64,000 nucleotides of DNA from the NCBI GenBank assembly GCA_038884975.1, contig JAWAAW010000001.1, forward strand, positions 18,476 through 82,475, written 5' to 3'. Positions 4,726-61,284 of the stretch are shown here, in pieces. The notes beneath the pieces are model-generated. The model saw only the letters and a program-made list of their open reading frames with translations. It made no database searches and had not been told where the DNA came from. This DNA is from Candidatus Woesearchaeota archaeon (GTDB lineage Archaea > Nanobdellota > Nanobdellia > Woesearchaeales > ARS49). Made by a program: the position numbers and the translations under genes. Each line of letters opens with the position of its first letter. Position 1 is the stretch's first letter.

Positions 4726-5093
4726 ACAAGGGTTTGTGGCTGACCGATGTTCTCAAATACCGGCGCTGAACGGCATTTCATCTGCACCATAAGCTTTGAA
4801 TGATAAATACAGTCTGCCTTAAGCCCCTGCCTACCGGGATTAAGGTATTCGCACTGGCGGTGGATGAACGAGTCCAGCGTGGTCGGCCTTTCCCTTGCAA
4901 GCACGCAAACCCCCTCATCAACCGGCACGTGCTGAGCAGGGTCGTTCTGATAAATGATTTCACCCTGCCCACGTATCTGCTGATACGCAGAAACCATTCC
5001 AGTTGATGCTGAAGAAAACGTAAGCGCAATTCCTGCAACTGCAACAACAAGAACAGCGCCAACAATCATAAGCATAATTGCCCTGTCTTCCAT
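4722..5093 (-). CDS. Small membrane-anchored Cys-containing protein
   Basis: Start trimmed to MEDRAIMLMIVGAVLVVAVAGIALTF (single N-terminal TM). Extracytoplasmic part carries 4 Cys. Confidence 0.5.
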   Translation of the reverse strand: MEDRAIMLMIVGAVLVVAVAGIALTFSSASTGMVSAYQQIRGQGEIIYQNDPAQHVPVDEGVCVLARERPTTLDSFIHRQCEYLNPGRQGLKADCIYHSKLMVQMKCRSAPVFENIGQPQTLV

Positions 5094-5226
5094 ATTATCA
5101 CTCTTTTTTGACCAATTTGTCACATTGCTATATAAACATTTTCATCGGATTAGCGTTAAGCACATGGTCTAGGCGTTTTTCAGGACCAACAAAAAGAATG
5201 AAAGAAAAAGAAGAAACAACAAAAAA

Positions 5227-18395: not shown

Positions 18396-18538
18396 ACTTG
18401 AATGAAAAATGAGGATATACTTTAACTTTGTGGTGCTCTTGCCCAGTGGTCATTTATATTATAAAATATATATTTTCAGATTTCATATGTCAAGAAAACA
18501 CAAAATATATAAAATAATATGTTTGCACTGCGCCAAGG
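18396..18538. promoter_or_regulatory. AT-rich divergent promoter region between the coiled-coil operon and the RHH-ATPase operon
   Basis: TATA-like tracts tttatattataaaatatatatt and aaaatatataaaataat. The latter ends ~20-25 nt before the RHH ATG at 18539, consistent with a short-leader or leaderless archaeal transcript. Confidence 0.35.
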
Positions 18539-18682
18539 ATGAAAAAACCAATTTCGGCAACAATAGAGGAAGACCTCATTGCCTGGATTGACAAAAAGGT
18601 TGCAAAAGAGAGAAAAAGATTTCGAAACAAGTCGCACCTCATAGAAGTCGCACTTGAAAAACTGCGCGAGGAGGAAGACTGA
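18539..18682 (+). CDS. Ribbon-helix-helix (CopG/Arc/MetJ-type) protein, 47 aa, absent from the ORF track
   Basis: Translation MKKPISATIEEDLIAWIDKKVAKERKRFRNKSHLIEVALEKLREEED fits the strand-helix-helix pattern (xxISxxIEEDL ... RNKSHLIEVALEKL). Its TGA overlaps the ATG of the ATPase gene (TGATG). Confidence 0.7.
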   Translation: MKKPISATIEEDLIAWIDKKVAKERKRFRNKSHLIEVALEKLREEED

Positions 18683-20955: not shown

Positions 20956-23105
20956 GCAACAACAAACTTCCAGCGGACCTAGTACAAAAATACAAGCAGA
21001 AACTACAAAGCCAGCTGGACCTCTCAACTGCAGAACCAATTCCTGTAGTAAGCAGGGAGTACAAGACATTCAAGCAGGAATCAATGCCGGGTCACATGAG
21101 CGTCTACGAAAAGGGATGCAACTTTGCAGGCAGACTTCTTAAAATCAGAGTTGACCCAAAAAGGGCGCAAGAACTGCAAGAATCAATTGACATCGCCCAC
21201 CTGAACATAACCCCTTCAGGAGTTATTGCCTTCAGCGTCGTCTTCCCCCTCGCGTATATAATATTTGGTTGCCTGCTCAGTCTTGCAATCGCAACATCAT
21301 TGTTTTTCACACTATTCTTCCTCGTATCCGGAATCACCCTCATGATTGTATTTGGAAAATACCCAATGTTCCTGGCAAACAACTGGCGCATGAAAGCAAG
21401 CAACCAAATGGTGCTCTGCGTGTTCTACGTTGTCACGTACATGCGCCACACAAGCAACCTCGAGCTTGCAATAGAATTCGCATCAGAACACCTCACCCCG
21501 CCATTGGCGCTTGACCTGAAAAAAATATTGTGGGATGTTGAAACCCAAAAGTATGAAAGCGTCAAAGAAAGCCTTGAAATGTATCTTGAAACGTGGAGGA
21601 AATGGAACAATGAATTTGTTGAGGCATTCCACCTAATAGTGAGTTCGCTTTACGAAACATCAGAAGAAAGAAGGCTCGCTCTTCTTGACAAGTCGCTTGA
21701 CGTCATACTTGAGGAAACGTACGAGAGAATGCTGCATTATGCACAAAACCTCAAGGGACCAATCACAATGATTCACATGCTCGGAGTAATACTACCAATC
21801 CTCGGGCTAGTTATACTGCCGCTCGTGGTAAGCTTTATGAGCAATGTTAAATGGTACCACATTGCAACCCTTTATAACATAATACTGCCTGTTGTCGTGT
21901 ATTTGCTTGGAAAGAACGTTCTCAGCCGGCGTCCCACAGGATATGGAGACACAGACATCGCAGAACTCAATCCCGCGCTCAAGAAATACCGAAACATAGT
22001 AATAAGGCTTGGCAATACAGAACTGCAAATAAACCCCATCTTCATCTGCGCAATCATCGGAGGCCTGTTTTTACTCCTCGCCCTTATTCCAGTAATACTC
22101 CACACAATACAACCAGACCTAAGCTATGACATTTCATTACCTTTTGACTGGAAACTGCTTGAATACCGCCAAAACACTGAAACAGGCGAAATAATAGGTC
22201 CTTTCGGAATGGGCGCATCACTCCTAAGCCTTGCATTCCCCCTTGCCCTCGCATTCGGAATCGGCCTTTATTTCAAGATGCGGTCGCAGAACGTGATAAA
22301 GATAAGGGAACAGACAAAAAAACTTGAAGACGAGTTCGCAAGCGCGCTCTTCCAACTCGGAAACAGGCTCGGCGACGGCCTGCCTGCAGAGATTGCATTT
22401 GCAAAGGTAGCAGAAGTAATGCCTGACACCGTAAGCGGGCACTTTTTTGAGGTCGTTGCCACAAACATCATGAAGCTTGGAATGGGAGTCAAAGAAGCCT
22501 TATTCAATCCCAGAACAGGCGCGCTCGTGTACTTCCCAAGCAACGTAATCCAAAGCTCAATGAAAGTGCTGGTGGAAAGCATCAAGAAAGGACCTGCAAT
22601 AGCTGCGCAGGCACTTCTCAACGTGGCAAGATACATCAAAGAAATCCACAAAGTAAACGAACGCCTAAAGGACCTTATGGCAGACGTCATTTCAGACATG
22701 AAGTCACAAATAAGCTTTTTGACGCCGGCAATAGCAGGGATAGTAATAGCAATAACAAGCATGATAACCTTCATCCTCGGCTCGCTCACATCAAACATCC
22801 AAAACCTCGGCGCAACAGAACTCGCAGGCAAGATGAGCGACATTGCAGGAATGTTCGGAATGGGAGTCCCAACATACTACTTCCAACTCGTTGTGGGGGT
22901 TTATGTGTTCGAAATAGTATTCATCCTCACAATAATGGCAAATGGAATTGAGAACGGAGCTGACAAACTGCAGGAAAAATATAACCTGGGAGCAAACCTC
23001 ATCAAGAGCACAATGCTTTACTGCATGCTCAGCTTCATAATGATGATAATATTCAACATGATTGCCTCACGCATAGTTGGCGTTGCAGGAGTCATGGCTG
23101 GATAA
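20952..23105 (+). CDS. FlaJ/ArlJ/TadC-like polytopic platform protein (two T2SS-F-like helical domains)
   Basis: Start set at the ATG 20952 (ATGA overlap with the ATPase stop). Two cytoplasmic helical modules (ELAIEFASEHLTPPLALDLKKILWDVE... and EDEFASALFQLGNRLGDGLPAEIAFAKVAE...) are separated by TM blocks. Confidence 0.75.
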   Translation: MSNNKLPADLVQKYKQKLQSQLDLSTAEPIPVVSREYKTFKQESMPGHMSVYEKGCNFAGRLLKIRVDPKRAQELQESIDIAHLNITPSGVIAFSVVFPLAYIIFGCLLSLAIATSLFFTLFFLVSGITLMIVFGKYPMFLANNWRMKASNQMVLCVFYVVTYMRHTSNLELAIEFASEHLTPPLALDLKKILWDVETQKYESVKESLEMYLETWRKWNNEFVEAFHLIVSSLYETSEERRLALLDKSLDVILEETYERMLHYAQNLKGPITMIHMLGVILPILGLVILPLVVSFMSNVKWYHIATLYNIILPVVVYLLGKNVLSRRPTGYGDTDIAELNPALKKYRNIVIRLGNTELQINPIFICAIIGGLFLLLALIPVILHTIQPDLSYDISLPFDWKLLEYRQNTETGEIIGPFGMGASLLSLAFPLALAFGIGLYFKMRSQNVIKIREQTKKLEDEFASALFQLGNRLGDGLPAEIAFAKVAEVMPDTVSGHFFEVVATNIMKLGMGVKEALFNPRTGALVYFPSNVIQSSMKVLVESIKKGPAIAAQALLNVARYIKEIHKVNERLKDLMADVISDMKSQISFLTPAIAGIVIAITSMITFILGSLTSNIQNLGATELAGKMSDIAGMFGMGVPTYYFQLVVGVYVFEIVFILTIMANGIENGADKLQEKYNLGANLIKSTMLYCMLSFIMMIIFNMIASRIVGVAGVMAG

Positions 23106-49126: not shown

Positions 49127-49642
49127 ATGGAACAAGTAATATTGGTTGACAAAAACAACAAAAAAATTGGTGTTGAAGAAAAAATAAGAGCTCACAAGGA
49201 AGGCATGCTTCACAGAGCGTTCTCAATCTTTGTTTTCAATTCCAAAGGAGAACTTCTTATCCAACAAAGAGCCACTAACAAATATCATTCTGGTGGATTA
49301 TGGTCGAATACAGTCTGCAGTCACCCAAAACCACACGAGACTTATCATAAAGCAGTTCATAGGAGGCTGAAGGAGGAAATGGGGTTTGACTGCCCCCTAA
49401 AAAAGGCATTCAGTTTTACTTACAAGACACGCTTTCAAAATGGACTGATTGAAAACGAACACGATTCTGTCTTTATCGGCAGCTTTGACGGAAAACCAAA
49501 ACCCAACCCTGAAGAAATAATGAATCACAAATGGGTTTCTGTAAAAAAACTAAAGAAGGACATAACAAATAACCCCAACAAATACACGATTTGGCTGAAA
49601 ATCGCCCTTGAAAAAATGACTGCCTTAAAAGAAAATCACTGA
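49127..49642 (+). CDS. idi: Isopentenyl-diphosphate delta-isomerase, type 1 (Nudix)
   Basis: GMLHRAFSIFVFNSKGELLIQQRA..K..SGGLWSNTVCSHP and a Nudix-like RRLKEEMG. Confidence 0.8.
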   Translation: MEQVILVDKNNKKIGVEEKIRAHKEGMLHRAFSIFVFNSKGELLIQQRATNKYHSGGLWSNTVCSHPKPHETYHKAVHRRLKEEMGFDCPLKKAFSFTYKTRFQNGLIENEHDSVFIGSFDGKPKPNPEEIMNHKWVSVKKLKKDITNNPNKYTIWLKIALEKMTALKENH

Positions 49643-50661
49643 GAGGGCGGCTGGACTGGCTGAGAAACAGTTGCCTGAAGCCGTGCCAGTTCTTCCTGAG
49701 GGTCAGGATTAAGAAATACCATCTGGACATTGAACTCAAGCCGGTCAAAAAAAGTGTTTTTCTTAACCCGTCCAACCAATTTCACAATCTGCCCAAGCAA
49801 TTCTGTCTTCAAAGGCTCAAACTGCTCAGGAACATGACGCAAAGGCAACAACTGGTCAATTGTTTTGCCAAGCAAACGCTCTGCCTGCTGGCGAAAAAGA
49901 ACGCACCTTATATTATCAGTGCCGTCATCAAGGAAAAGGTTCATTACAAAAGCATAATCTGGCTTAACAACTCCATGCTTTTCGCAAACAAAATTGCCGT
50001 CCTGCTCCTTTGCCCTTCCATTGCATGTGGGACAAATCTCAAAAAACCTCGGATCAAAAACCTGGACTATTGTGCCGAGCACTTCAACATTCTCATCACC
50101 ATCCTGCAAAGCCTTGATTTCCTTTCTTATGGCAGCAGCCCTCTGTTGCAACTGCCTGACCTCCCCAAAAGCAATGCCTGCAGGATTGACAATCAAATGG
50201 GCTTTCTCATTAACATGAACTTCTGGATAGCCGCGCTGGTTTTCCTTGGCCAGCCCGCCAGAAACCTTAACAATGTTGCCAATCTCAAGCTTGCTAATTA
50301 CTTCCGCCTGCTCACCCCAACCAACAACACGCATAACACCAGTCTCATCAGCAACCATGCAACTTGAGACCTTCCCTTCTGTACCGTCCTGCCTCGAAAA
50401 AGTATTCAACGGATAAACCGCCTGCACCTTGCCAGCAAACTCAACACTCCTCATTCCAGCATAAATATCCTTAATCTTGCCTGAATTCTCCAAAAGTTTA
50501 ACGCCAAGCTCATTCGCAATGATGTGAGCAGCACCTTCCTTGCTTATCAGCCCAGAGAGCTGCTTTAGTTTGGTATCAATTCTTTCCTGAATCTGCTGGC
50601 GAGAAAGACCTGTCTTTTGCTCGATCTTTGCAAGCATTTCATCATAAGGAATTCTTATCAC
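49636..50661 (-). CDS. rpa: Replication protein A-like ssDNA-binding protein (OB folds + Zn finger)
   Basis: N-terminal helical domain (LISKEGAAHIIANELGV), OB-fold regions and CPTCNGR...CEKHG. Confidence 0.75.
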   Translation of the reverse strand: MIRIPYDEMLAKIEQKTGLSRQQIQERIDTKLKQLSGLISKEGAAHIIANELGVKLLENSGKIKDIYAGMRSVEFAGKVQAVYPLNTFSRQDGTEGKVSSCMVADETGVMRVVGWGEQAEVISKLEIGNIVKVSGGLAKENQRGYPEVHVNEKAHLIVNPAGIAFGEVRQLQQRAAAIRKEIKALQDGDENVEVLGTIVQVFDPRFFEICPTCNGRAKEQDGNFVCEKHGVVKPDYAFVMNLFLDDGTDNIRCVLFRQQAERLLGKTIDQLLPLRHVPEQFEPLKTELLGQIVKLVGRVKKNTFFDRLEFNVQMVFLNPDPQEELARLQATVSQPVQPPSQ

Positions 50662-50721: not shown

Positions 50722-51579
50722 TTATGTTGCAGCACTCCAAGATTCAGGTGCATAAAGAGCAAAAATAATGTCACTCATTGAGCCATAGGGGTTAATTACG
50801 GGATTCTTCGCTGTGCAAACAAGATAGTCAGGATTTGAAGAACTCCTGACAGCAGAAAATGCAGTTATTGTTTTCAGACAATCATCAACAGAATAAGCAT
50901 CAGTGCATTCATAAAATGTCCTTACTGCCGCCTTAAGCGAATCATAAACCTCAAGCCTTGCACTGACAGGAACAGTAAATGAAGGCTTGAAAGAATACTC
51001 ACCAATTGCAGCTTTTTTCAATACCGCAGTTGTTATTGTTATAAACCACCGTTCGTATTTGCGCAGTTCAGGAGGAGGCTGCAACAAGACTCTGGCTGAC
51101 TTAATAGCAGTCCCAGTAACTGAATTATTCTGGACAAAAATCACGTAATTGCCAGCAGGCAGCATTGCGGACTGGTATTTGCTTGTGAAAACATCCATTT
51201 GCTTGTTGAATGCGGCATTTAGTGCCTCATAAGGTTGCACAGAATCCAAACAAAGCATTCCTCTTGCAGACCAAGCATAAATTTTTTTGTTAGCCTCTTC
51301 AATAATGCCACACTTCGCCTCAACCACAGCCCCTGAAGCGGCAACTTCATCAAGCGCGCGATAAACAGACATTTTTGCAGACTGATCAACGTAAAGCAAG
51401 GCATTCTCGCCAGACTGGTACGCATTCAACAGAGCCACCTGAGAACCGCCCAGCGGAGTCTCAAATGACTCAACCTTTGACGCGAGCTGTATGTACATAT
51501 AAATAACAAGTATCAGCGTTACAAGCACCATCATTGCTGAATAATCAATCCCTTTCTTGTTTTTCAGCATCTGAATCAT
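50722..51579 (-). CDS. Secreted/anchored protein with prepilin-like N-terminus, unknown function
   Basis: MIQMLKNKKG|IDYSAMMVLVTLILVIYMY. ATGA overlap with the upstream gene. Last gene of the operon. Confidence 0.55.
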   Translation of the reverse strand: MIQMLKNKKGIDYSAMMVLVTLILVIYMYIQLASKVESFETPLGGSQVALLNAYQSGENALLYVDQSAKMSVYRALDEVAASGAVVEAKCGIIEEANKKIYAWSARGMLCLDSVQPYEALNAAFNKQMDVFTSKYQSAMLPAGNYVIFVQNNSVTGTAIKSARVLLQPPPELRKYERWFITITTAVLKKAAIGEYSFKPSFTVPVSARLEVYDSLKAAVRTFYECTDAYSVDDCLKTITAFSAVRSSSNPDYLVCTAKNPVINPYGSMSDIIFALYAPESWSAAT

Positions 51580-51968
51580 TGGCGCTTCACCTCAACCCTG
51601 TATTCTGAAACTGCGCCATCATAACTGGGAAGAACGGTTTTCATCACAGCACTTGGCAGGTCAATCTTGGAACCGCACAAAAATTTGTCATTCCGATAAA
51701 CTGCAATCTGTGCCTGTGGCCCATAAGCATCACGTGTGACCTGGTCAACCCTTGAGCAGTCATTGCGTTCCAAATCATCAGCGACAGCAGCAAGCAAAAG
51801 CCGCAGCTGGTCTGAGGTGTCCAAATCGATTATTTCTGCCTTGATGTCAAATGCCTGCTTTTTAATGAATGCGCTGGTTGTTAACGTAAAGCCCACCAGC
51901 ACCAACGCTATTATTCCAACCGCTGCGAGCAAAGTAAATGCCCTTCCTGCAAGACCGCGCTTGTTCAT
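51576..51968 (-). CDS. Prepilin-like protein
   Basis: MNKRG|LAGRAFTLLAAVGIIALVLVGF. ATGA overlaps at both ends. Confidence 0.55.
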   Translation of the reverse strand: MNKRGLAGRAFTLLAAVGIIALVLVGFTLTTSAFIKKQAFDIKAEIIDLDTSDQLRLLLAAVADDLERNDCSRVDQVTRDAYGPQAQIAVYRNDKFLCGSKIDLPSAVMKTVLPSYDGAVSEYRVEVKRQ

Positions 51969-52453
51969 CTAAAACCTCCCGGTGGCTTTGGAGCATAAAC
52001 CTGGTCTATTTCCAGCAAGGCAAACTTCTGGCTGTCCTGAATCCAGACAGGCCTTGTCTCAATGAAGTTCTGATACCTAACTGGCGACAATGGTTTCGCT
52101 TCCTTGTATAGCCCTTCATTGAAATACGCTTCATCATGGTCAAGCGTAAGCTTCATCGCAAGTCTTCTTGGAGTGCCCGCAGTCGTAAACGCATCCACAA
52201 TCATTTTCTTGTCCCATAAGCCCTTGCTTGCAAGCACACCCGAATAAATCCTGTGAGTGAGGGGGGATTGCCATGCAGTTTTTGTCAGGATACGCTCTGT
52301 AAAAATCACGTTCTCAAGCCCTGCGGTGTCTGTCTTTTGCGAAAACACACTTGAAGGTGCCTGAACAATAAAGAAAATAACTGCAACAGTAAGCGCAATG
52401 TAAAATATCCAAAAAACCACTGCCTCACTAATTTGAGCCCTGCGATCAAGCAT
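51965..52453 (-). CDS. Prepilin-like/anchored protein
   Basis: ATG at 52453 gives MLDRRAQISEAVVFWIFYIALTVAVIFFIV. The track start at 52462 is a GTG. Overlaps the upstream gene by 8 nt. Confidence 0.5.
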   Translation of the reverse strand: MLDRRAQISEAVVFWIFYIALTVAVIFFIVQAPSSVFSQKTDTAGLENVIFTERILTKTAWQSPLTHRIYSGVLASKGLWDKKMIVDAFTTAGTPRRLAMKLTLDHDEAYFNEGLYKEAKPLSPVRYQNFIETRPVWIQDSQKFALLEIDQVYAPKPPGGFR

Positions 52454-53381
52454 TGGAAACACCCCTCATTATTGCAGTGGCAATCATCATCTGATGACTT
52501 GGGTCTACAAACAAGCTTTGGTCTGAAGCGCTGATTTCAAGCAACACACCAGCAGTTCCTTTTGAAATGACAGAATCATCAGCTGAAGTCTGGTCAGGAT
52601 TAACAGGAATAACTGCCGCACCTGTTACTTCAAAACCCATCCTGCCAAACTCTGTTATTAGCGCATTCACAACCTCGCAGCCAAGGCGCTGGCTTTGGCC
52701 AAGAATCTCAGGAACATTGTCTCCATTTACGAAAGCCTTAATAATTAATTCGCCAGGACTGGAATTGCTCAGTTTTATTGCAAGCAAATTATTTCCCTGC
52801 TTTGGGCCCAGCATTCCACTTGCCATTCGAGCAATCACCTGTTCTGCTTCAGCATTGGAAGCGTGCGCAGACACTACCGAAACCCCGCCAGCGAGCTTTT
52901 CATCACTGCACGTAAGATATTCGCGATAATAATCATAATTGCGCTCATTCAGGTTGCGGACAAGCAAGTTTTTGCCCTGCTTGACAAAGACAGGAATTAC
53001 TTTCTTGTCGCTAAATGACAGGAATGATTCTTCAGTGCTTATGCCCGGATCTGGAGTGAAATAAAATAAGCCGGGAGATGGATCATCAATCTTTGCAAGA
53101 GCACTGACGCTATTCCTTGAAAAGTTGTATAAGTAATTGATGCTGAAGTTCTCACCAACCTGAGGTATATAAATCAAGAAAAGATTTCCCGGCTGAGGCA
53201 TTGCAGGAATTGCATCCTGTATGAGCGCAAGGTCTGTTGCGAGAAAGCGCTTTTCAAAAGTGGTTTTTTCACCAACACCATGAATGTACGACAACATTGT
53301 TATCAGAATCATTACGGCAACCATGGTTTCAAACAAAGGATGCAATACAAAACCTATCCAAGCGCCTTTTTTTGATTTCAT
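52446..53381 (-). CDS. Prepilin-like/anchored 311-aa protein
   Basis: ATG at 53381 (ATGA overlap) gives MKSKKG|AWIGFVLHPLFETMVAVMILITML. The track start is a TTG. Confidence 0.55.
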   Translation of the reverse strand: MKSKKGAWIGFVLHPLFETMVAVMILITMLSYIHGVGEKTTFEKRFLATDLALIQDAIPAMPQPGNLFLIYIPQVGENFSINYLYNFSRNSVSALAKIDDPSPGLFYFTPDPGISTEESFLSFSDKKVIPVFVKQGKNLLVRNLNERNYDYYREYLTCSDEKLAGGVSVVSAHASNAEAEQVIARMASGMLGPKQGNNLLAIKLSNSSPGELIIKAFVNGDNVPEILGQSQRLGCEVVNALITEFGRMGFEVTGAAVIPVNPDQTSADDSVISKGTAGVLLEISASDQSLFVDPSHQMMIATAIMRGVSNA

Positions 53382-53833
53382 GAGCAAGCAGCACCAATAT
53401 GCACTGAATTATCCATCTTGCGGCATATCCTGACAGGCGTGCCTTGAGCAACAGCAACAACTTCAGGCTCAGGATTTATGGCACACATTCCTTTTTCGCA
53501 ATTGCTCTCAATCTTTTGCAGTATCACGCACGTCTTGCTTTCTGAATCGCAAATGCAGGGCTTGCCCTTGCAATAATCATTAGTGTTTCCTGCACCATAA
53601 AACTCAAGAACATAACCACCGCCAGTAGTAATAACGTCAATTGCCTGGTTTGGCTGCAATGCTGCAATTTCCTTGACAACCCTTTCGCGGTCCCTCACCA
53701 CAAGGGTTGTTGGTTTCTTAGATACTTCCCAAACGCCGTAAAATATTGAAAACAAAATAAGGGCAATCATGACAGAAAAAAGAAGTATTCCTGCATGAAT
53801 CACCGGCACTTCAACCTGTCCCTTTTTGTCCAT
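53378..53833 (-). CDS. Prepilin-like Cys-rich protein
   Basis: MDKKGQ|VEVPVIHAGILLFSVMIALILF. The mature part has 8 Cys (CKGKPCICD...CEKGMC). Confidence 0.55.
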   Translation of the reverse strand: MDKKGQVEVPVIHAGILLFSVMIALILFSIFYGVWEVSKKPTTLVVRDRERVVKEIAALQPNQAIDVITTGGGYVLEFYGAGNTNDYCKGKPCICDSESKTCVILQKIESNCEKGMCAINPEPEVVAVAQGTPVRICRKMDNSVHIGAACS

Positions 53834-53873: not shown

Positions 53874-54179
53874 TCAGCTGACTTCGCAGCAAGACATTCC
53901 TTTTGGCGTGCAGTCAGCCCAAGTGCCTGGAAGTGTGATTGAGTTTGGAACTTCAGAACAACTATTGGCGCACTTTCTTGTGTGGAGCGCAAAAAGGGTT
54001 TCACAAACGTCTGCCTTTGCCTGCTGTTCTGCAGTTTCAGAAATGTTAACATACTTTTTGGAACCTTTCTGCAGCTGCGTGGTTATCAAGACAATAAGAA
54101 CCACCAGCACAACAAGCCCAAGAACAGCAAGAATAATTGTGTTGATTGGCAAACCCTGACCGCGCTTCATAACATTCAT
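53874..54179 (-). CDS. Small type IV pilin-like protein (paralog C)
   Basis: M(NVM)KRGQG|LPINTIILAVLGLVVLVVLIVL. C-terminus contains a CC pair. Confidence 0.7.
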   Translation of the reverse strand: MNVMKRGQGLPINTIILAVLGLVVLVVLIVLITTQLQKGSKKYVNISETAEQQAKADVCETLFALHTRKCANSCSEVPNSITLPGTWADCTPKGMSCCEVS

Positions 54180-54206: not shown

Positions 54207-54851
54207 CTAGTGTATTGCCATCATTATGATGTTGCTGGCCTGTGCGGGATCAACACCGCCCGGCTGAATGTTGCCAACTTGCACGCCACCAAGGCTTCCA
54301 TCACTACCAAGTCTTGAGCTGTCATCCTGCACAAAATCATGATAAACGCCTTGACGGACCTGATTAAAGACAAAAGGCCTGCTCTTTGAATAATCAGAGC
54401 CCCACACAATGCGCAAGTCATTGCCAACAGCCCTCCGCCAGTCCTCATCAATAAAAATATGTGTTTCAAGAACGCCATTCATTGAACGCTCAACCATAAA
54501 ACCCTGCAAAATTCCATCATTTGGATTGAGAATTGGAGTGACTTCCATCATCAGCTTTCCATTTTCATCAAAGTACTTGGTGCCAAAGAAATTTCCCTTG
54601 TAAATCCCCTCGTAAGCAAAAGCAGTAAAGCCCATACCCGGAATCAAAACCTGCTCATTAACATCATTGTATTTCCCTTTGCCACGCGTTGCTTCTTTCA
54701 CATCAACAGAAACACCACCAGGAACAGGCGAAAGCCAGTCAGCAGGATTGTTGCTGTACACGTGCCTTTTTGGCATCATGACCCAACGAATTCCGAGAAT
54801 AATCAGGATTACAATAAGCAATGCCAAGACAACAGCTAAGAGTTTTTTCAT
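54207..54851 (-). CDS. N-terminally anchored/secreted protein, unknown function
   Basis: ATG at 54851 (ATGA overlap with the stop of the 1032-aa gene) gives MKKLLAVVLALLIVILIILGI. Confidence 0.55.
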   Translation of the reverse strand: MKKLLAVVLALLIVILIILGIRWVMMPKRHVYSNNPADWLSPVPGGVSVDVKEATRGKGKYNDVNEQVLIPGMGFTAFAYEGIYKGNFFGTKYFDENGKLMMEVTPILNPNDGILQGFMVERSMNGVLETHIFIDEDWRRAVGNDLRIVWGSDYSKSRPFVFNQVRQGVYHDFVQDDSSRLGSDGSLGGVQVGNIQPGGVDPAQASNIIMMAIH

Positions 54852-57800
54852 GGCCATTTCTCCCAAGCCTCCAATACAACATCAGTCGCTGCAGATATAA
54901 GCCCGGTCGAGAGCAACGCGACAGGGGTTGCCAGTCCGGAAGTAAAGCCAATCATAACTGCATCAACCGCCAGCGAAGCCATTGTTACAACATTCCTAGC
55001 CCATTCCAGCCGAGGAAAGTTATCATAGCAATAAGTTCCGTCAAGAATGTTCGCCTCTATCTCAAGGCAGTCTGGCTTGAAATACTCGTCCTTAAGGAGA
55101 GAATTCAGCATGTTTTTCTTGGCTTCAGAACTCATTGATTCACCCCAAATATTGCCGCCAGCCAAATAGCTATAATAAAGAGTGCCTCCAAAATTCATCA
55201 CGTCCTTCACAAATCCTGCTTGGTCGCACTGCTTGACAGCATGGGAGGCATCATACCATTCTTTCATCCGTTCACCTGCCATAATTGTAGAAGGCCCTCC
55301 CTGCACCTGCCGGGTTCCAGCAAGCCAGTGTATCAATCCATCCCTGCCCTTCACAAGACCGCCGACAGGAGAAACAACATCACTGAAGAAATTGTCATCG
55401 TATTTTTCCATTTCCTCGTCAAGGTATTGTGCGAATGCGTACTTATCATACGAATCGCCGTACACATTTAATTTTGTCATCGCATCAAGAGCATTCCATT
55501 GCGCACGCCAATTCTCAAACTTCACTGCCTTGACAACATCCTCCCACTGCTTCTTGAATTTTGCCTCAAGAACAGCACCTGACAAAGGCTTCACTGAACC
55601 CGGCTCAACATTAATTGTTCCAGTCGGATAAGTGAACTTGTGCAATTGTGGATTCTTGTAACAAGTGCACTTGCGCTTATAAACAACAAGGTCTGCCTTG
55701 CACGGGCTAACATAATACATCCTTTGTCCATACTTGTCCTTGTTGTGCACGAAAAAATCATACGATGCGTTGTTAAGGTCAAGGGGCAACGTTGGACCAA
55801 GCAGTGTTGGCTGGTTGATTGCGAGGGAATTTGCACCAACAGGCCTGAATTTCTCATTAACAGAATCTTGTGCCTCAATAAACCAACCAATTAACAGCAT
55901 TGCAGGATAACTGTGCTGAGCAACCCAGACTGGCAAATTGACCAGTGTCTTGATTGCGGTTCCACCAATTACAAGCCCGCCAGCTGACAGTTTTACAGGT
56001 GATTGTGCTGTAATGAATGCAAAAAGCTCACTCGGCTTCCACACTTTTGGGAAGTTCTTTGTTGAGAACCCGCCAAGAGTTCCTGAGAGGAGAATATCAA
56101 GCATTTCGCGACTGCCACCCAAAGCCTTCTGAACACCTGTCGGATTTATCTTGCCTATAGCATTAAGACTCTTGATTGCTGACTCTGCATTCTTTGTGAA
56201 CAGGTCAATATCCAGTGTTCCCTCTTTTGTAATCATCCCTGAAAGAAGGTCCTCATAAGCGCGCTTTCTGATAATATTTGCTGCCATTTCTTTGCTCAAA
56301 TCTCGCTCTATAAGCTCCTTAAACCCGCCCTTAACCTCTGCGCCAGCAAATGACATTGTTTTCTTTGCGCCAGCTTCTATCGCTTCCTCAGGCAATTCCT
56401 TTCCTTCAATAATGAACTTTTTGATAGATTCCTTATATGCCTGCAAAGCCTTCGCGCGGATTTCTGCTTCAGAAAGCCCCACCTGGCCAGGACCCACCAA
56501 CTCGGTTATCGGTGCCTTTTCCTTCCAAGCCTTGACAAACACATCAGGAACATCATTAATCCTTTTTTCAATAACATCATCAATCTGGCTTGCAAGACCT
56601 TTTTCCATTGCTTTTTGCCACGCTCTTGGTCCAGACCTGGTTCCGATGGATTTCAAAATGACATCTGTAATTTCTTCTGCCACATCATCAGTCATTCCTT
56701 GCACTCCCATCATTGCCTCTTTCATCACCACTGCCTTCATCGTGTTTTCAACGCCGTTCCTGGCAAGCCTGTTAATAATCACTTTCTCTACTTCAGTAAT
56801 TCCACGCTTTGCCAACGCCTCGCCAGTCTGTTTTGCAATTTCTTTTGCCTCTTTTTCAGCAACCTTCTTGACAGCCTTTGCACCCTTTCCAATACCACCA
56901 AACATATTAAAAAAGCCAGAAGCAGTAACTGTTGCGATTGTCCAGAGATTGAACATGTCGCTCCATTCCTTATGCCAGTACTCAGCAGCCTCAGGAGGGA
57001 AGGACTCATAATAAACAAGCCATCGTGGGTCTCCATATGCTGAAAGGAATAGTTTTGCCATTCCGCCACCAACATCCTGCGGAAGCTCAAAACCCTTCAC
57101 AGAGCACGAAAAAGTGTCAGTGGCATCAATATCACAATCATTAATGCTGATGTACTGATGAAAATTGCCGTGCCTGAAATCAATGCAGAAAACCATATCC
57201 TGATTCCTGAAAATTTTTCCTTTATTGAAACTTGTTTGTATCTCAACAGCATTCTGGAATGCCATGTTTGTTTTTGAAAGCAATTCATCAATAACTTTTT
57301 CCTGTCCCGGAAATTTTGCCTTGTTATTTTTCATATAAGAAACCAGCTCGTCCTCATCAATTGAAAAATCATCACCCCGCCTTTTGTAATCAACATAAGC
57401 GCAACGCAAATCCTGCTTAAGGAACGGGTCTGACTTTATCTTGCAGTCTATTATTTGCTTTGAAAGCTCATAAATTACGTCTTCTTTTTTTGCAGGCGCT
57501 ACAACCCGAACAGGCGCAATTCCAGAGCACTTAACAACTGAAGAATCATACTGTTTTGGCTCTGTTGTTGTCATTCCCGTAACAACAGCCCAAGCCTTGC
57601 CTGTCGGAGTCTGCGCCATTTGTTGCGGCACTGCCTCAAGCGGAGGGGGGCAGACTTTAGGGTCATTCGGCCTGAACTCGCCCAAGGCAACACTATTCAG
57701 AGCACAACGCAAAGCATTCACCGAATTCATCACCTTGCGCTCTTCTTCAGTGAGCGGCGGGCCGGTATAAGGAACAAAAACCTTTTCGGCAGGCGCCCTT

Positions 57801-57946
57801 CCAAGAACACCTCTCTCGCCAAAAATTTTTTCTTTGGCAAACTGATAGCCCAGGTTCCCCAGACCATAAACAACAAGAAGTATAACTATTGCTCCGAGCA
57901 CTATGCTGATGAATGCCATTGCCTTTTTGTGCATCATCTCAGCCAT
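54848..57946 (-). CDS. Giant (about 1030 aa) multi-pass membrane protein, unknown function
   Basis: N-terminus (MAEM)MHKKAMAFISIVLGAIVILLVVYGL. Further hydrophobic segments near aa 330, aa 640-690 and the C-terminus. Contains a ~300-aa K/E/A-rich helical region. An alternative start at 57937 gives an ATGA overlap with the upstream smORF. Confidence 0.7.
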   Translation of the reverse strand: MAEMMHKKAMAFISIVLGAIVILLVVYGLGNLGYQFAKEKIFGERGVLGRAPAEKVFVPYTGPPLTEEERKVMNSVNALRCALNSVALGEFRPNDPKVCPPPLEAVPQQMAQTPTGKAWAVVTGMTTTEPKQYDSSVVKCSGIAPVRVVAPAKKEDVIYELSKQIIDCKIKSDPFLKQDLRCAYVDYKRRGDDFSIDEDELVSYMKNNKAKFPGQEKVIDELLSKTNMAFQNAVEIQTSFNKGKIFRNQDMVFCIDFRHGNFHQYISINDCDIDATDTFSCSVKGFELPQDVGGGMAKLFLSAYGDPRWLVYYESFPPEAAEYWHKEWSDMFNLWTIATVTASGFFNMFGGIGKGAKAVKKVAEKEAKEIAKQTGEALAKRGITEVEKVIINRLARNGVENTMKAVVMKEAMMGVQGMTDDVAEEITDVILKSIGTRSGPRAWQKAMEKGLASQIDDVIEKRINDVPDVFVKAWKEKAPITELVGPGQVGLSEAEIRAKALQAYKESIKKFIIEGKELPEEAIEAGAKKTMSFAGAEVKGGFKELIERDLSKEMAANIIRKRAYEDLLSGMITKEGTLDIDLFTKNAESAIKSLNAIGKINPTGVQKALGGSREMLDILLSGTLGGFSTKNFPKVWKPSELFAFITAQSPVKLSAGGLVIGGTAIKTLVNLPVWVAQHSYPAMLLIGWFIEAQDSVNEKFRPVGANSLAINQPTLLGPTLPLDLNNASYDFFVHNKDKYGQRMYYVSPCKADLVVYKRKCTCYKNPQLHKFTYPTGTINVEPGSVKPLSGAVLEAKFKKQWEDVVKAVKFENWRAQWNALDAMTKLNVYGDSYDKYAFAQYLDEEMEKYDDNFFSDVVSPVGGLVKGRDGLIHWLAGTRQVQGGPSTIMAGERMKEWYDASHAVKQCDQAGFVKDVMNFGGTLYYSYLAGGNIWGESMSSEAKKNMLNSLLKDEYFKPDCLEIEANILDGTYCYDNFPRLEWARNVVTMASLAVDAVMIGFTSGLATPVALLSTGLISAATDVVLEAWEKWP

Positions 57947-58098
57947 TCAAGCCAGGCAGCCTGCCTTTGCCCTGCCTTGGCAATCAGCCATATCGCGAAC
58001 AAGAGGACAAACAAGCCAATAATCAAGGCAATAACGTAAGCCCATCCTGGAATGTCCCCTTTCTTATTCCTCAACATTGAATAAAGTGTTCGTATCAT
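57934..58098 (-). CDS. Unannotated small prepilin-like ORF (54 aa)
   Basis: Hand translation MIRTLYSMLRNKKG|DIPGWAYVIALIIGLFVLLFAIWLIAKAGQRQAAWLEWLR. Starts 3 nt after the stop of 58102..59067, and its TGA overlaps an ATG of the giant gene. Confidence 0.5.
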   Translation of the reverse strand: MIRTLYSMLRNKKGDIPGWAYVIALIIGLFVLLFAIWLIAKAGQRQAAWLEWLR

Positions 58099-58101
58099 TT
58101 T

Positions 58102-59067
58102 TCAGTCCAAAAGGAACGTGCAATCACCCTGTGGCGCAACAATCAAGTCCTGCCTGTACTGCAAAATCTTGAGCACGTTTGCATCTTGCTTTATGCCACC
58201 AATGCTAATGCCAGCAATGTCTCCAAGCTGTTGGGCATTAATTCTTTCATAAAGGATTGCAATTCCTTCATCACTTAATTCAAAATTATTCTCTCCCATC
58301 TTAAAAAGGGCGCTTTTCACGGTCTGGCCCTCCTCGATGTATTCCATATACGACTTTGTTAAGTGTGGCACTGGATTATTTGACATAAATTCATTAAGGC
58401 TTGTAATGCTAGTCTTGCCAACAAGCTGAACTATCTGCGGGTCAAACGTGATGTGCGAGCAAAGAATGCAATTAGTTGGCGCTTTCTGCGCCTGCAGCTT
58501 GCCAGAAACAACTTCCCAAATTCCATAAATAGGAACTGCAAACGTGGCAAAATCCTCTAATTTTGAGCACGGCTCTGTCTTCCCATCCTTCTTGCAATTG
58601 TAAAGCCTCCACCACTCATCAAATATTGGAATCCTGCCTTTAAAGACTTTTTCCCAACAAGAAACCATCTGGTCTGCAATAATGCTATCAAGCGCGAACT
58701 CATAAACAAGCTGCTCCTCACTACGCTTTTCAGGATTATCCCTAAAATACGGCGCGGTGTCTTTGTACAATTCCTCACTTTTAATGGTTTTTAACCTTTT
58801 TTTGGCATAACTCACCTTATTGCGGAGGTCTTCTGGCTTTATTACAATACGGCTTGCACGACAACCTTCAGGCACCCCTTCTGCAATACTCAATGAGCCT
58901 GCCTTGCGGATGCCTGCAAGAAGCACAGCCCACTCACAAGCCCCTTTTTCTTCTGCTGCGTAAAGCTTTTTCTCAACAGTCGGATACAAACTAAGAAAAA
59001 CAACAAGAAAAACAACAGCAATACTGAGTGGTATAAGGGCATTAATAATCTCCCCTTGTTTTTTCAT
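58102..59067 (-). CDS. Prepilin-like 321-aa protein, unknown function
   Basis: MKKQG|EIINALIPLSIAVVFLVVFLSL. The mature part has 8 Cys. Confidence 0.6.
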   Translation of the reverse strand: MKKQGEIINALIPLSIAVVFLVVFLSLYPTVEKKLYAAEEKGACEWAVLLAGIRKAGSLSIAEGVPEGCRASRIVIKPEDLRNKVSYAKKRLKTIKSEELYKDTAPYFRDNPEKRSEEQLVYEFALDSIIADQMVSCWEKVFKGRIPIFDEWWRLYNCKKDGKTEPCSKLEDFATFAVPIYGIWEVVSGKLQAQKAPTNCILCSHITFDPQIVQLVGKTSITSLNEFMSNNPVPHLTKSYMEYIEEGQTVKSALFKMGENNFELSDEGIAILYERINAQQLGDIAGISIGGIKQDANVLKILQYRQDLIVAPQGDCTFLLD

Positions 59068-59183
59068 GCAACACCACCAGGAACAATCCTGCCGATTATT
59101 TTAAGGATAATATAAAAAAGTACAACAAGAAGCACAAGAACAACTAAAGTAGTAACAACCAAACGGGACGCACCTCTTTTCAT
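59064..59183 (-). CDS. Unannotated small prepilin-like ORF (39 aa)
   Basis: Hand translation MKRG|ASRLVVTTLVVLVLLVVLFYIILKIIGRIVPGGVA. ATGA overlap with the downstream gene. Confidence 0.45.
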   Translation of the reverse strand: MKRGASRLVVTTLVVLVLLVVLFYIILKIIGRIVPGGVA

Positions 59184-59229: not shown

Positions 59230-59511
59230 TCAATAATTGTACTTTTCCTTTGTACAGCAGACTTCCATAAAGCCAAGCCTGGACTTGTCTTCCTTGACAA
59301 AACTGCCAATCTGTGGTTCTCCGCCAAGACTCTCACATTCTGATGCAGACATCACAGCATTAGCAGGACAAACAGATTCCTGCGCCTCACTCACGCCCTT
59401 CCCAAACTTTTGAGCCCTAAAGCCAAAAATGCCGAGAAGGACAAAAAGAACAATTAAACCCAGAGCTGCAATGATGATTACTGTTATTGGAAGACCTTGG
59501 GCTTTTTTCAT
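59230..59511 (-). CDS. Small type IV pilin-like protein (paralog B)
   Basis: MKKAQG|LPITVIIIAALGLIVLFVLLGIF. C-terminus has a CC pair. Confidence 0.7.
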   Translation of the reverse strand: MKKAQGLPITVIIIAALGLIVLFVLLGIFGFRAQKFGKGVSEAQESVCPANAVMSASECESLGGEPQIGSFVKEDKSRLGFMEVCCTKEKYNY

Positions 59512-59645
59512 GTTACTGATGACATTATTGGTATTACGATGTGCTTGTTAAGCACGAACAATGTTGTTATTAAGTAAATGAGTAACAACACCAGAAAGAT
59601 TAGGATAATAATCTTTCCAGGCGTTGCTTCTGTGACGAAGGGCAT
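59508..59645 (-). CDS. Unannotated small TM ORF (45 aa)
   Basis: Hand translation MPFVTEATPGKIIILIFLVLLLIYLITTLFVLNKHIVIPIMSSVT. TAATG overlap with pilin A and ATGA overlap with pilin B. Confidence 0.4.
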   Translation of the reverse strand: MPFVTEATPGKIIILIFLVLLLIYLITTLFVLNKHIVIPIMSSVT

Positions 59646-59962
59646 TATGCTATAGGCACGCAGCAACGCGTGCATTTGACGATATCTTCTGGCTTTATGT
59701 TCTGAGGTTGCCCTGGCTTTACGTAATTGCCACTAACCTCACGCTCAAAACCAGGAGTGCATTCCCTGTCAGCAGTAATCATTACTTTCGAATCACCAGA
59801 GCCTGTGTATTCGCCAACACAAATTCCTGGGCATTCTGCAGTAGCCCTACCAAAGATGGCAAGCCTGCCTGTTGTGATTGCGAACAAAATGACCAGAACA
59901 ACCAGGCCAAGAATGGCGATGATTATTGTTGTTATAGGGAGTCCCTGAGCTTTCTTGTCCAT
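59645..59962 (-). CDS. Small type IV pilin-like protein (paralog A)
   Basis: MDKKAQG|LPITTIIIAILGLVVLVILFAI. C-terminus reads CTRCCVPIA. Confidence 0.7.
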   Translation of the reverse strand: MDKKAQGLPITTIIIAILGLVVLVILFAITTGRLAIFGRATAECPGICVGEYTGSGDSKVMITADRECTPGFEREVSGNYVKPGQPQNIKPEDIVKCTRCCVPIA

Positions 59963-60031: not shown

Positions 60032-60370
60032 TCAGTAACTCCTGGGCAGCCTGCCTGACTCGTAGCAGTCTATGACGCCATCCTTATTCTTGTCCTTTTC
60101 AGCAATAGTTTCCCGCATCATCCGCATCGCTTCCATAGCAGCCCTTTCGCGCTCATAGAACCTAACAGCAGCCCATAATCTTTCATTTTCCACCTTGTCC
60201 ACAACCAAATAATCAACGTAATTACTCTCAAGATAAGCCTTTTTAACTATGGAGCCAAAACCACCGCCAAGCGCAAGACCTACAAATGCAATTGTTGCAG
60301 ACTTGCACACATTATTCCAAAAACCAACCGGCTTTTTTTCGCCAATTTTTGAATCAATTGTCTCGTTCAT
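60032..60370 (-). CDS. Membrane-anchored protein with a single C-terminal EF-hand
   Basis: One TM (ATIAFVGLALGGGFGSIV). Canonical 12-residue loop DKNKDGVIDCYE. Confidence 0.65.
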   Translation of the reverse strand: MNETIDSKIGEKKPVGFWNNVCKSATIAFVGLALGGGFGSIVKKAYLESNYVDYLVVDKVENERLWAAVRFYERERAAMEAMRMMRETIAEKDKNKDGVIDCYESGRLPRSY

Positions 60371-60381
60371 TTTAACACCTC

Positions 60382-60690
60382 CTACTGGTTCCTGAGATAG
60401 AACAGGACCTCTTCTTCAGTGATTTTGCCGTCCTTGTTCCTGTCAAGCAAACGTTCAGGACAAGGATATTTTGCCCTGACCGCACCAGCAAGCTTCCTCA
60501 CCTTTTCTGATTCATACTCAATTGCCATTTCTTTTTTTCCATTGTTAAAAAAGCTTATTTTTGGAAGCGCACCTGTCATTTCAAGATGCCTGTAGCCGAC
60601 ATACATACAAACGGCGCAACAGGCTGTCACAAGCGCGAGGTCAAATGCCACACGGATTGCCTCATTTACTTTTTCCTCAAGCTCTCCCAT
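60382..60690 (-). CDS. Membrane-anchored protein with a single C-terminal EF-hand
   Basis: One TM (AFDLALVTACCAVCMYVGY). Canonical loop DRNKDGKITEEE. Confidence 0.65.
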   Translation of the reverse strand: MGELEEKVNEAIRVAFDLALVTACCAVCMYVGYRHLEMTGALPKISFFNNGKKEMAIEYESEKVRKLAGAVRAKYPCPERLLDRNKDGKITEEEVLFYLRNQ

Positions 60691-61156
60691 AACCCATCAC
60701 CTGCCCTGCGAGCGAAGGATCAGAAAGGAAGCTCTCACGCTTCAATTCCTCAACAATAAAATGAACCTCCTTTGTCTTCACACCATAAGATTGCTCAAGC
60801 TTCTCGCAGAATTCCTCAAGCTCACGCATGTCCCTAAAAACACATTCTGCCATGAAATCATAACCGTTATTGATACGCATCAAAGAATTAACATTAGTGG
60901 AGCACAACAAGTGTTCTTTCAGCTGATCACGCTTTTCCTTCAGCACCTTGAACATAATTGTTGCACAAGTATTAAAACCAAGCTTCTGGAAGTCAAGCAA
61001 AGCAGAAAGCCTTTTTATGCCTATCGAGTCAGGCGAATGAATCCTATCGAACAAGGTGCTGACAGGAATGCCAGTCAGCCTTGACAATTTTGACAGCTTT
61101 ATGCGCGCATCCTGCCTCAAATGCGCTGTTATTGCCAGCAATTTTTCCTCACGCAT
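60677..61156 (-). CDS. Lrp/AsnC-family transcriptional regulator
   Basis: Start trimmed to MREEKLLAITAHLRQDARIKLSKLSRLTGIPVSTLFDRI (HTH), with a C-terminal RAM-like domain. 14-nt overlap with the first EF-hand gene. Confidence 0.7.
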   Translation of the reverse strand: MREEKLLAITAHLRQDARIKLSKLSRLTGIPVSTLFDRIHSPDSIGIKRLSALLDFQKLGFNTCATIMFKVLKEKRDQLKEHLLCSTNVNSLMRINNGYDFMAECVFRDMRELEEFCEKLEQSYGVKTKEVHFIVEELKRESFLSDPSLAGQVMGYGRA

Positions 61157-61284
61157 CCAAATCACCTCCGAATAATTCGCAATATATCCGGAAACAACAT
61201 ATACTTTTCTCATATACCATATATATTACCATAAACATTTATATTCCACAAGATTTATATATATGAAAACAATAAGCGACATTA
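61157..61284. promoter_or_regulatory. AT-rich divergent promoter region (Lrp-led operon versus AbrB-PhoU gene)
   Basis: Several TATA-like tracts (catatatattacc, atttatattcc, gatttatatatatg) lie within 128 bp between the two start codons. Confidence 0.35.

Follow-up and report, generated by a model that had tools for sequence, protein, structure and literature searches.

What is the role of a 1032-residue protein that is encoded in the midst of an array of pilin-like genes? The question is raised by a stretch of 64,000 nucleotides (hereafter the window; positions 18,476 to 82,475 of contig JAWAAW010000001.1, assembly GCA_038884975.1, Candidatus Woesearchaeota archaeon), whose largest open reading frame (ORF) lies on the minus strand at 54848..57946 and is here called BIG; the runners-up in the ORF listing measure 800, 757 and 733 aa. 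An earlier note on this DNA had taken the product for a multi-pass membrane protein and for a component of the apparatus formed by the small pilins. Our analysis shows BIG to be the large signature subunit of a DPANN-wide operon for about 12 pilin-like proteins. As to what it does there, we read it tentatively, and with less than even confidence, as a subunit that is exported, anchored by its pilin-type helix and part of a type IV filament-related apparatus for host contact, with a modification-free central arm that engages a membrane or conduit. We put this reading forward because of the pilin-type N-terminus of BIG, its four marginally hydrophobic helices 2 to 5, the conserved motifs at the junctions of the arm, the hydrolase-bearing partners and a central desert of glycosylation sites and cysteines.

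A conserved family with a pilin-type N-terminus

The ORF is real and carries the N-terminus and the hydrophobic segments that had been quoted for it, and the ATGA overlaps described at both of its ends are present. Since the stop codon TGA of the preceding gene, t54 (57936-57934), overlaps the ATG of the fourth codon of BIG (57937-57935), translation probably starts, as in homologs, at M4 (57937) or M5 (residue numbers refer to the window protein throughout); homologs begin MHKK.. or MMQKK... At the other end the TGA of BIG (54850-54848) overlaps the ATG (54851-54849) that opens the next gene (MKKLLAVV...).

A word-indexed search returned 12 relatives of 22-76% identity, the closest ortholog being 76% identical and the further homologs 22-57%; its repetition with a 115-sequence profile brought up no new proteins. 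An exhaustive profile search with clustering at 50% gave 642 cluster representatives with E values up to 1e-3, of which 470 stay at or below 1e-10; most measure 850-1350 aa, the longest 2049 aa. Invariant or nearly so in 115 members are F286-E-L-P-Q290, D306-P307, Y312-Y-E-x-F-P317 and W324 and, further along, G704, R742, S747-P-C749, C762, K905-x-C907, C973 and W1031-P1032. Judged from the number of representatives, the orthologs and these common motifs, BIG is under selection.

The genome matches all lie in archaeal metagenome-assembled genomes (MAGs), nearly all of them labelled DPANN (Woesearchaeota, Nanoarchaeota, Aenigmatarchaeota, Nanohalarchaeota and Nanobdellati). Other labels are those of third-party annotation (TPA) MAGs named 'uncultured Methanosarcinales', an automatic label that we doubt, and of two entries named 'uncultured archaeon'; one weak match is in a Thermoplasmatota MAG. 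The contig with the nearest relative, CAYGVI010000003.1 (our locus L009; 76% protein identity, full synteny), was itself deposited as 'uncultured Methanosarcinales archaeon', probably wrongly, since its gene content and all other relatives indicate DPANN (Woesearchaeota-like). A viral origin of the cluster was considered and dropped, as no relative is found among IMG/VR contigs.

BIG lies within an 11-kb co-directional run of genes that overlap or stand no more than 70 bp apart. It opens with the AsnC-type regulator and two small membrane proteins; then come two successive pairs of a pilin and a mini-ORF, p321, t54 and BIG, followed by p219, pilin, p151, p313, p165, p130 and p285 and then by the gene for RPA. 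Twelve to thirteen consecutive genes encode an N-terminus of the class III (prepilin-like) pattern, with about 20 hydrophobic residues after [KR][KR][GA]; from the pilins through p285 the exception is p219. In BIG the pattern reads HKKA followed by AMAFISIVLGAIVILLVVY, and most of the 155 listed homologs keep it. In an hhalign comparison the first 48 residues of the BIG family match the N-terminal profile of the cluster pilins (96.8%, E 2e-10, 39 columns), as compared to 56% over only 6 columns for the generic signal anchor of p219 as control. Pfam and NCBIfam models of pilins or archaellins match neither BIG nor the small pilins.

When the cluster proteins were compared by phmmer with the ORFs of 40 related loci (five of them duplicate copies, and many clipped by contig ends), the same gene order was found in contigs from Woese-, Nano- and Aenigmatarchaeota. 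BIG is present in 37 of the loci, of which 26 also have p219, 24 have p321, 23-25 a pilin, 19 p313 and 16 p285. The conserved order, the pilin co-occurrence and the match to the pilin profile support the proposal that BIG belongs to the small-pilin apparatus.

No known family accounts for the protein. Neither BIG nor its five longest homologs have a match in Pfam, NCBIfam or the PDB sequences, in agreement with the earlier failure to recognise a catalytic or family motif, and 42 diverse members yield no recurrent Pfam match, only scattered single weak ones, among them one to SseC (E 1e-3) in one of the 42. The 115-sequence profile finds only designed helical proteins among the PDB sequences, which is a compositional effect. 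A first AlphaFold2 (AF2) model, built on a 13-sequence alignment, reached a predicted local distance difference test score (pLDDT) of 60; a second, built on 65 sequences, reached a mean pLDDT of 75 and a predicted TM-score (pTM) of 0.75, with confident domains at about aa 65-105, 130-325, 395-560, 690-860 and 885-990 and values below 50 at aa 329-385 (the helix 2 region), 653-668 and 996-1009. Foldseek searches with both models against the PDB, and with the second also against BFVD, gave nothing at E < 0.1. By hhalign, the two Cys-rich domains of BIG show no internal duplication of one another, and neither shows homology with p321 or p313. The possibility that S747-x-x-K750 marks an active site like that of penicillin-binding proteins (PBP) was rejected, since neither an SxN nor a KTG motif follows in the required order and there is no match to the PBP fold.

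A central region free of sequons and cysteines

The layout originally described, an anchor, a Cys-containing domain, a K/E/A-rich region, a further domain and a hydrophobic tail, is seen in the hydropathy and Cys map. Hydropathy peaks lie at aa 9-27, 331-352, 651-690 and 982-1028, the first being strongly hydrophobic (Kyte-Doolittle value over 19 residues, KD19, 2.83) and the second and third weakly so. Eight Cys residues fall in aa 81-281 and six in aa 749-973, none in the K/E/A-rich aa 357-650. The first Cys-rich domain is closed by the most conserved motif of the family, FELPQ...GDPxWLVYYESFP...W (aa 286-324), and the second carries the invariant SPCKA, C762, K905/C907 and C973. Between them, the zone of aa 300-725 comprises helix 2 (331-352), a helical K/E/A-rich domain (366-644, the mid domain) and segment 3 (651-700). 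The protein ends in an invariant Trp-Pro (KWP, in many homologs KWPNH). Some homologs (P0009, P0025, P0042, P0054, P0056 and others) run beyond this Trp-Pro and end in ...H(x)n[SG]GCF[S], which may be a second conserved terminal motif.

The zone of aa 300-725 is devoid of sequons, that is, of N-x-S/T with x other than P: in 115 members it contains none in 47,043 residues, where composition-preserving shuffles give 212 +/- 14 (minimum 170), and for the mid domain the count is likewise 0 as compared to about 141 expected. When all 400 pairs of residues at positions i and i+2 are ranked for the mid domain, the two strongest depletions are those of NxS and NxT (observed over expected, O/E, 0.06 and 0.09; the next pair stands at 0.33). 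Asn with Ser or Thr at spacing 1 or 3 occurs as expected, and the counts of reverse sequons, QxS/T, DxS/T and NxA/G come close to those expected. The 11 instances of N-x-S/T that do occur in aa 366-644 are, every one, N-P-S/T, the sole form of N-x-S/T that cannot be glycosylated. A count made independently of the alignment, from the FELPQ to the SPC anchor in 143 sequences, found 24 sequons versus 295 expected; these 24 presumably lie near the anchors, since the alignment places none in reference positions 300-725.

The depletion extends in weaker form to the flanking domains of BIG, which hold about a third of the sequons expected (80 versus 236 and 59 versus 197), and to p321 (O/E 0.22). By contrast, controls drawn from these genomes are not depleted: 18 versus 19.5 in cytoplasmic proteins of the window, 86 versus 93 in soluble ORFs of the DPANN loci outside the cluster, and 281 versus 242 in other membrane or secreted ORFs. 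The RPA orthologs are sequon-poor as well (4 versus 16 expected). Since small conserved families can thus deviate, what carries the argument is the magnitude of the effect in BIG together with the N-P-S/T exception. Cysteine follows the same course, with 0.1% in aa 300-725 and 0.04% in aa 366-644 as compared to 2.2-3.4% in the flanking domains and 1.44% in cytoplasmic controls.

Since the median pairwise identity of the mid domain is just 13%, the two deserts must be kept by selection and not by ancestry. A cytoplasmic loop would be indifferent to sequons and cysteines; the pattern therefore suggests that aa 300-725 are at least transiently extracytoplasmic and that a glycan or a disulfide would be harmful there, and it argues against an ordinary cytoplasmic loop. 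An analogy may be drawn with autotransporter passengers, which are scarce in Cys and have a narrow path to thread after export. As regards N-glycosylation among DPANN archaea, the cultured Nanobdella carries aglB together with surface proteins rich in sequons (bioRxiv 10.1101/2023.10.27.564410). A description of sequon avoidance in archaea was not found in the searchable literature.

Does the polypeptide then pass the membrane several times, as had been assumed? Hydrophobic segments are present as described, but when the insertion free energy (dG) was summed over 19 residues per segment in 115 members, only the N-terminal helix, TM1, proved to be of transmembrane grade (median -2.0; at or below 0 in 85% of members). 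For segments 2, 3, 4 and 5 the medians are +5.0, +9.0, +5.3 and +5.6; these segments never reach +2 or less, and they abound in Gly, Ala, Val, Ser and Thr. Median Kyte-Doolittle values are 2.71 for TM1 and 1.58, 1.14 and 1.76 for the later segments. On these predictions only the N-terminal helix appears insertion-grade, and with a centre that is sequon- and Cys-free, unlike a cytoplasmic loop, the multi-pass status of BIG is not secure. Helices of marginal hydrophobicity can nevertheless insert with the help of partners.

Partners, possible mechanism and alternatives

Two partner families include members with domains of peptidoglycan hydrolases. The p313 family combines a pilin-like N-terminus with a C-terminal Amidase_3 domain: its profile matches MurNAc-L-Ala amidases (4rn7, 4e-9; CwlV, 5e-8; LytH, 6e-8), and the Pfam model Amidase_3 (PF01520) is matched by 6 of 12 members, down to 7e-19. 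The p285 family is expanded in other genomes; its 1178-aa ortholog at L018:3673-7209 (-) carries fused NlpC/P60 (1e-14) and SLT (2e-5) domains, and that at L020:4607-5809 (-) a Peptidase_C39_2-like domain. These DPANN archaea are not known as peptidoglycan makers, and pilin-like murein hydrolases in such cells therefore point to an outward target, a bacterial partner. A bacterial partner has previously been suspected for Woese- and Pacearchaeota (PMC8204110).

We suggest that the dozen or so pilin-like proteins of the operon would jointly build a type IV filament-related surface apparatus, its assembly powered by the ATPase and platform at 18.7-23.1 kb. The pilin-type helix would be the sole hold of BIG in the archaeal membrane, with the remainder of the protein exported, and the arm would be a folded helical domain between Gly/Ala-rich marginal helices, set between the two Cys-rich domains. 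After export the arm might insert into, or pass, a membrane or a narrow conduit and for this be kept unmodified. The hydrolase-bearing partners would breach the wall of the partner cell, which is probably bacterial, and BIG would then provide the membrane-engaging element of the contact. A bolder version, in which BIG is the protein by which DPANN archaea engage the host membrane, is delivered by the filament machine and inserts the fusion-peptide-like Gly/Ala-rich helices of its glycan- and Cys-free arm into that membrane, where they form a pore or fusion site and thereby a cytoplasmic bridge that feeds the symbiont, we regard as unlikely.

Several observations weigh against the proposal of an exported, membrane-engaging subunit. 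No pore-former, fusogen, translocator or adhesin shows similarity to BIG, and the best Foldseek values are E 0.75 (PDB) and 0.12 (BFVD). The arm is a confidently folded helical domain of 250 aa (pLDDT 85-95) and could not cross a bilayer unaided. For the predicted cleavage of BIG no prepilin peptidase (GxGD) was found in the window or the loci, nor was AglB (WWDYG motif) found there, in a limited amount of DNA to search. The p313 of the window is without the DPGHG and SIH histidines, which are catalytic or Zn-binding; they are lost in this copy and one other, while five orthologs keep both motifs, and because of this loss the window p313 is probably non-catalytic. The ATPase and platform genes stand outside the operon, and no FlaI/PilB-type Walker-A protein was seen within about 10 kb in the 40 loci with a regular expression that was unvalidated on the window ATPase; archaeal pilin loci can be separate from those of ATPase and platform (PMC4858521). 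Finally, Lys and Arg cluster after helix 2 (4.8 versus 1.2), and the succession of Cys-rich, Cys-free and Cys-rich regions with four hydrophobic helices and this cluster fits a polytopic topology in the archaeon's own membrane as well.

Such a polytopic protein is the main alternative. BIG would then span its own membrane with five helices, hold the Cys-rich domains outside and the K/E-rich helical domain in the cytoplasm, and as a scaffold link the base of pilin assembly to cytoplasmic partners, like GspL/PilMNO or accessory proteins of the FlaF/FlaG/FlaX type; it would be the membrane anchor that the earlier note had considered. The four further hydrophobic helices are kept in every member, the distribution of Cys and the enrichment in Lys and Arg behind helix 2 are consistent with the in/out pattern required, helices so rich in small residues could assemble into a bundle or an oligomer, and the global AF2 model is, at the pTM given above, fairly confident. 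Then again, a cytoplasmic domain should match the background, which the mid domain does in neither sequons nor Cys, the helices 2-5 are never insertion-grade, and AF2 confidence falls below 50 at helix 2 and in part of segment 3. We hold a scaffold of this kind to be slightly less likely than the exported subunit. Could BIG instead be exported and yet passive, a giant minor pilin or S-layer-like protein at the tip or in the envelope that does no more than bind surfaces? Its central helical region would in this case be a packed stalk or oligomer core from which burial excludes glycans. The pilin-like N-terminus agrees with such a role, as does the only partial depletion of sequons in the flanking domains (O/E about 0.3), and archaeal pilus loci often hold large putative adhesins or S-layer-like proteins with class III signals and conserved Cys (PMC4858521). 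But burial normally spares some surface, and a stretch of about 425 residues without a single sequon, in 115 sequences as divergent as these, exceeds what packing would bring about; moreover, a passive adhesin gives the four conserved Gly/Ala-rich helices no role, and adhesin folds such as Ig, PKD, beta-helix and vWA were not found in the 42 diverse members or the five longest homologs. On balance this explanation seems improbable to us.

Two further alternatives can be given still less weight. In a competence-like uptake of DNA, BIG would be the conduit, the pilins and wall hydrolases would deliver the DNA, and RPA and RadA would process it. In 12 of the 40 loci the gene immediately downstream of p285 is that for RPA, with RadA a few genes beyond, and the RPA gene is still joined to p285 in L018, a locus that has the downstream half of its cluster inverted; DNA import has also been proposed for DPANN pili (PMC9563170). 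However, BIG is without similarity to ComEC, ComEA or nucleic-acid-binding domains, a ComEC-like channel would need more hydrophobic helices, and stronger ones, than it has, and RPA and RadA are housekeeping proteins whose linkage may reflect plain conservation of gene order, all of which makes DNA uptake very improbable. That BIG is an alternative platform in place of PilC/FlaJ/TadC, as had also been proposed, is more improbable still: the pilin operon itself has no ATPase or platform gene, but a canonical ATPase with an adjacent probable platform gene is encoded in the same window, 32 kb from the pilin-like array, and is likely its motor, the BIG family profile has no similarity to this platform candidate (hhalign probability 0.5%), and T2SSF is matched by none of the 42 members.

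How does BIG compare with known systems? With archaeal type IV pilins and other class III proteins (such as Epd of Methanococcus, Aap/Ups of Sulfolobus, PilA of Haloferax) it shares a short basic leader ending in G/A, about 20 hydrophobic residues, its place in an array of small pilins and the conserved Cys in the exported part. Unlike them, BIG is tenfold larger, has four extra marginal helices and a sequon- and Cys-free centre, and matches no Pfam or NCBIfam pilin model. As a large subunit amid genes for minor-pilin-like proteins it resembles large bacterial proteins associated with pilus tips or minor pilins (GspK, PilY1, TadG and CofB/TcpB). PilY1 has a Ca-binding site, and the BIG locus has a small neighbour with a sub-threshold EF-hand match. 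There is, however, no similarity to these four in sequence or fold (the Foldseek best is the E of 0.75 already given), and they are without the internal hydrophobic helix pairs and the modification-free centre of BIG. The long helical domain, the weak Gly/Ala helices and the paucity of Cys recall pore formers of the ClyA/YaxAB type, the T3SS translocators SseC/IpaB/YopB and phage tape-measure proteins such as T5 Pb2, and the genomic tie to peptidoglycan hydrolases recalls the last of these, a likeness of composition and architecture only, as neither the Foldseek values (tape-measure proteins E 0.1-0.3, YaxA E 4.5) nor the one SseC match is significant. With the T2SSF platforms (PilC/GspF/FlaJ/TadB-C) BIG has in common the membrane association, the helical domains and a pilus ATPase in the genome, but no homology, and the window has its separate probable platform gene.

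The system itself is thus known, an archaeal type IV filament-related set with class III signals, and BIG is outside the described families of pilins, platforms, adhesins, pore formers and translocators. Among DPANN archaea, Castelle et al. 2021 (PMC8204110) reported lineage-specific surface and membrane families without function, including large murein-transglycosylase proteins of Woese- and Pacearchaeota. BIG resembles them in occurring in the same organisms, in its predicted membrane or extracellular location, in being unannotated and in its link to peptidoglycan degradation; the families of that work are given as a bulk listing. Descriptions of the family, the operon or the desert, or of a counterpart to the architecture and the modification-free arm of BIG, were not found in the searchable literature. 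A large share of archaeal diversity belongs to the DPANN archaea, whose way of life is attachment to other cells. For the proteins behind these contacts and behind the reported cytoplasmic connections the BIG family is a concrete candidate by its spread, its near-restriction to DPANN among labelled genomes, its pilin-like operon and its hydrolase-domain partner families. The total avoidance of sequons and Cys indicates a specific physical constraint on an exported segment, and such deserts may be a general and cheap signal for segments of archaeal surface proteins that need to stay unmodified.

The array and other features of the window

The features of the array, the parts of BIG and the distant motor genes are collected in Table 1. 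The three mini-ORFs, 59064-59183, 59508-59675 and 57934-58098 (39, 55 and 54 aa), encode a single hydrophobic helix each and stand at the same position in other loci, and they are therefore probably real micro-proteins of the apparatus.

Table 1. Coordinates in the window of the pilin-like array, the parts of BIG and the genes for ATPase and platform
Feature	Position	Strand	Basis
AsnC-type regulator, head of array	60677-61213	-	synteny
Two small membrane proteins, between AsnC-type regulator and first pilin	60382-60690 and 60032-60370	-	
Small pilins	59645-59962 and 59230-59511	-	synteny, N-terminal pattern
Mini-ORFs	59508-59675 and 59064-59183	-	ORF listing, synteny
p321, Cys-rich conserved partner, class III-like N-terminus, always immediately upstream of BIG	58102..59067	-	synteny
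t54, 54-aa pilin-like mini-protein, stop overlaps BIG start	57934..58098	-	ORF, synteny
BIG, signature large subunit of cluster	54848..57946	-	ORF listing, ATG start, 1032 aa
BIG: pilin-type N-terminal hydrophobic helix, aa 9-27, HKKA before	57866..57922	-	KD19 2.83; hhalign to pilins
BIG: first Cys-rich alpha/beta domain, aa 46-321, 8 Cys, Cys 3.4%	56984..57811	-	AF2 pLDDT 80-96
BIG: sequon-free, nearly Cys-free zone, aa 300-725	55772..57049	-	115 homologs
BIG: second Cys-rich domain, aa 706-969, beta sheet and helices	55040..55831	-	conservation, AF2
BIG: two Gly/Ala-rich, marginally hydrophobic C-terminal helices, aa 978-1032	54851..55015	-	hydropathy, conservation
p219, signal-anchored partner, always adjoining BIG, probable start 54851	54207..54866	-	synteny
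Downstream pilin	53874-54179	-	N-terminal pattern, synteny
p151, pilin-like	53378-53833	-	N-terminal pattern, synteny
p313, pilin-like, degenerate Amidase_3 domain	52446-53387	-	profile and Pfam
p165, pilin-like	51965-52462	-	N-terminal pattern, synteny
p130, pilin-like	51576-51968	-	N-terminal pattern, synteny
p285, pilin-like	50722-51579	-	N-terminal pattern, synteny
RPA (ssDNA-binding), after p285	49636-50661	-	synteny
Type IV filament ATPase (FlaI/TadA-like), 757 aa, long N-terminal extension	18682-20955	+	T2SSE 4e-16; FlaI and TadA models about 1e-34
Probable platform, 733-aa membrane protein adjoining ATPase	20904-23105	+	weak T2SSF 0.033

The first of the two small membrane proteins has an EF-hand match, DRNKDGKITEEE (EF-hand_1, E 4e-4, below the Pfam cut-off), which suggests a possible Ca-dependent control; in the second the EF-hand match is marginal (E 0.055). 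The orientation of p219 varies: the gene is co-directional with BIG here and in six further distinct loci, and about 15 loci have it convergent (E values of the homology 1e-13 to 1e-49). An invertible element was considered as the cause, but flanking inverted repeats were not found, and the flip is therefore an evolutionary inversion and not a switch.

Elsewhere the window encodes RadA, a KaiC/RadB-like ORF (recognised by inspection only), ribosomal protein S2 and RFC in addition to RPA, a gene content that is archaeal. A protein with a GGDEF diguanylate-cyclase domain (564-1550, minus strand; E 9e-44), unusual for archaea, is also present. Two ORFs at 1651-2118 and 4722-5123, both on the minus strand, have a short polar leader followed by a long hydrophobic helix and may be extra pilin-like proteins beyond the main array.

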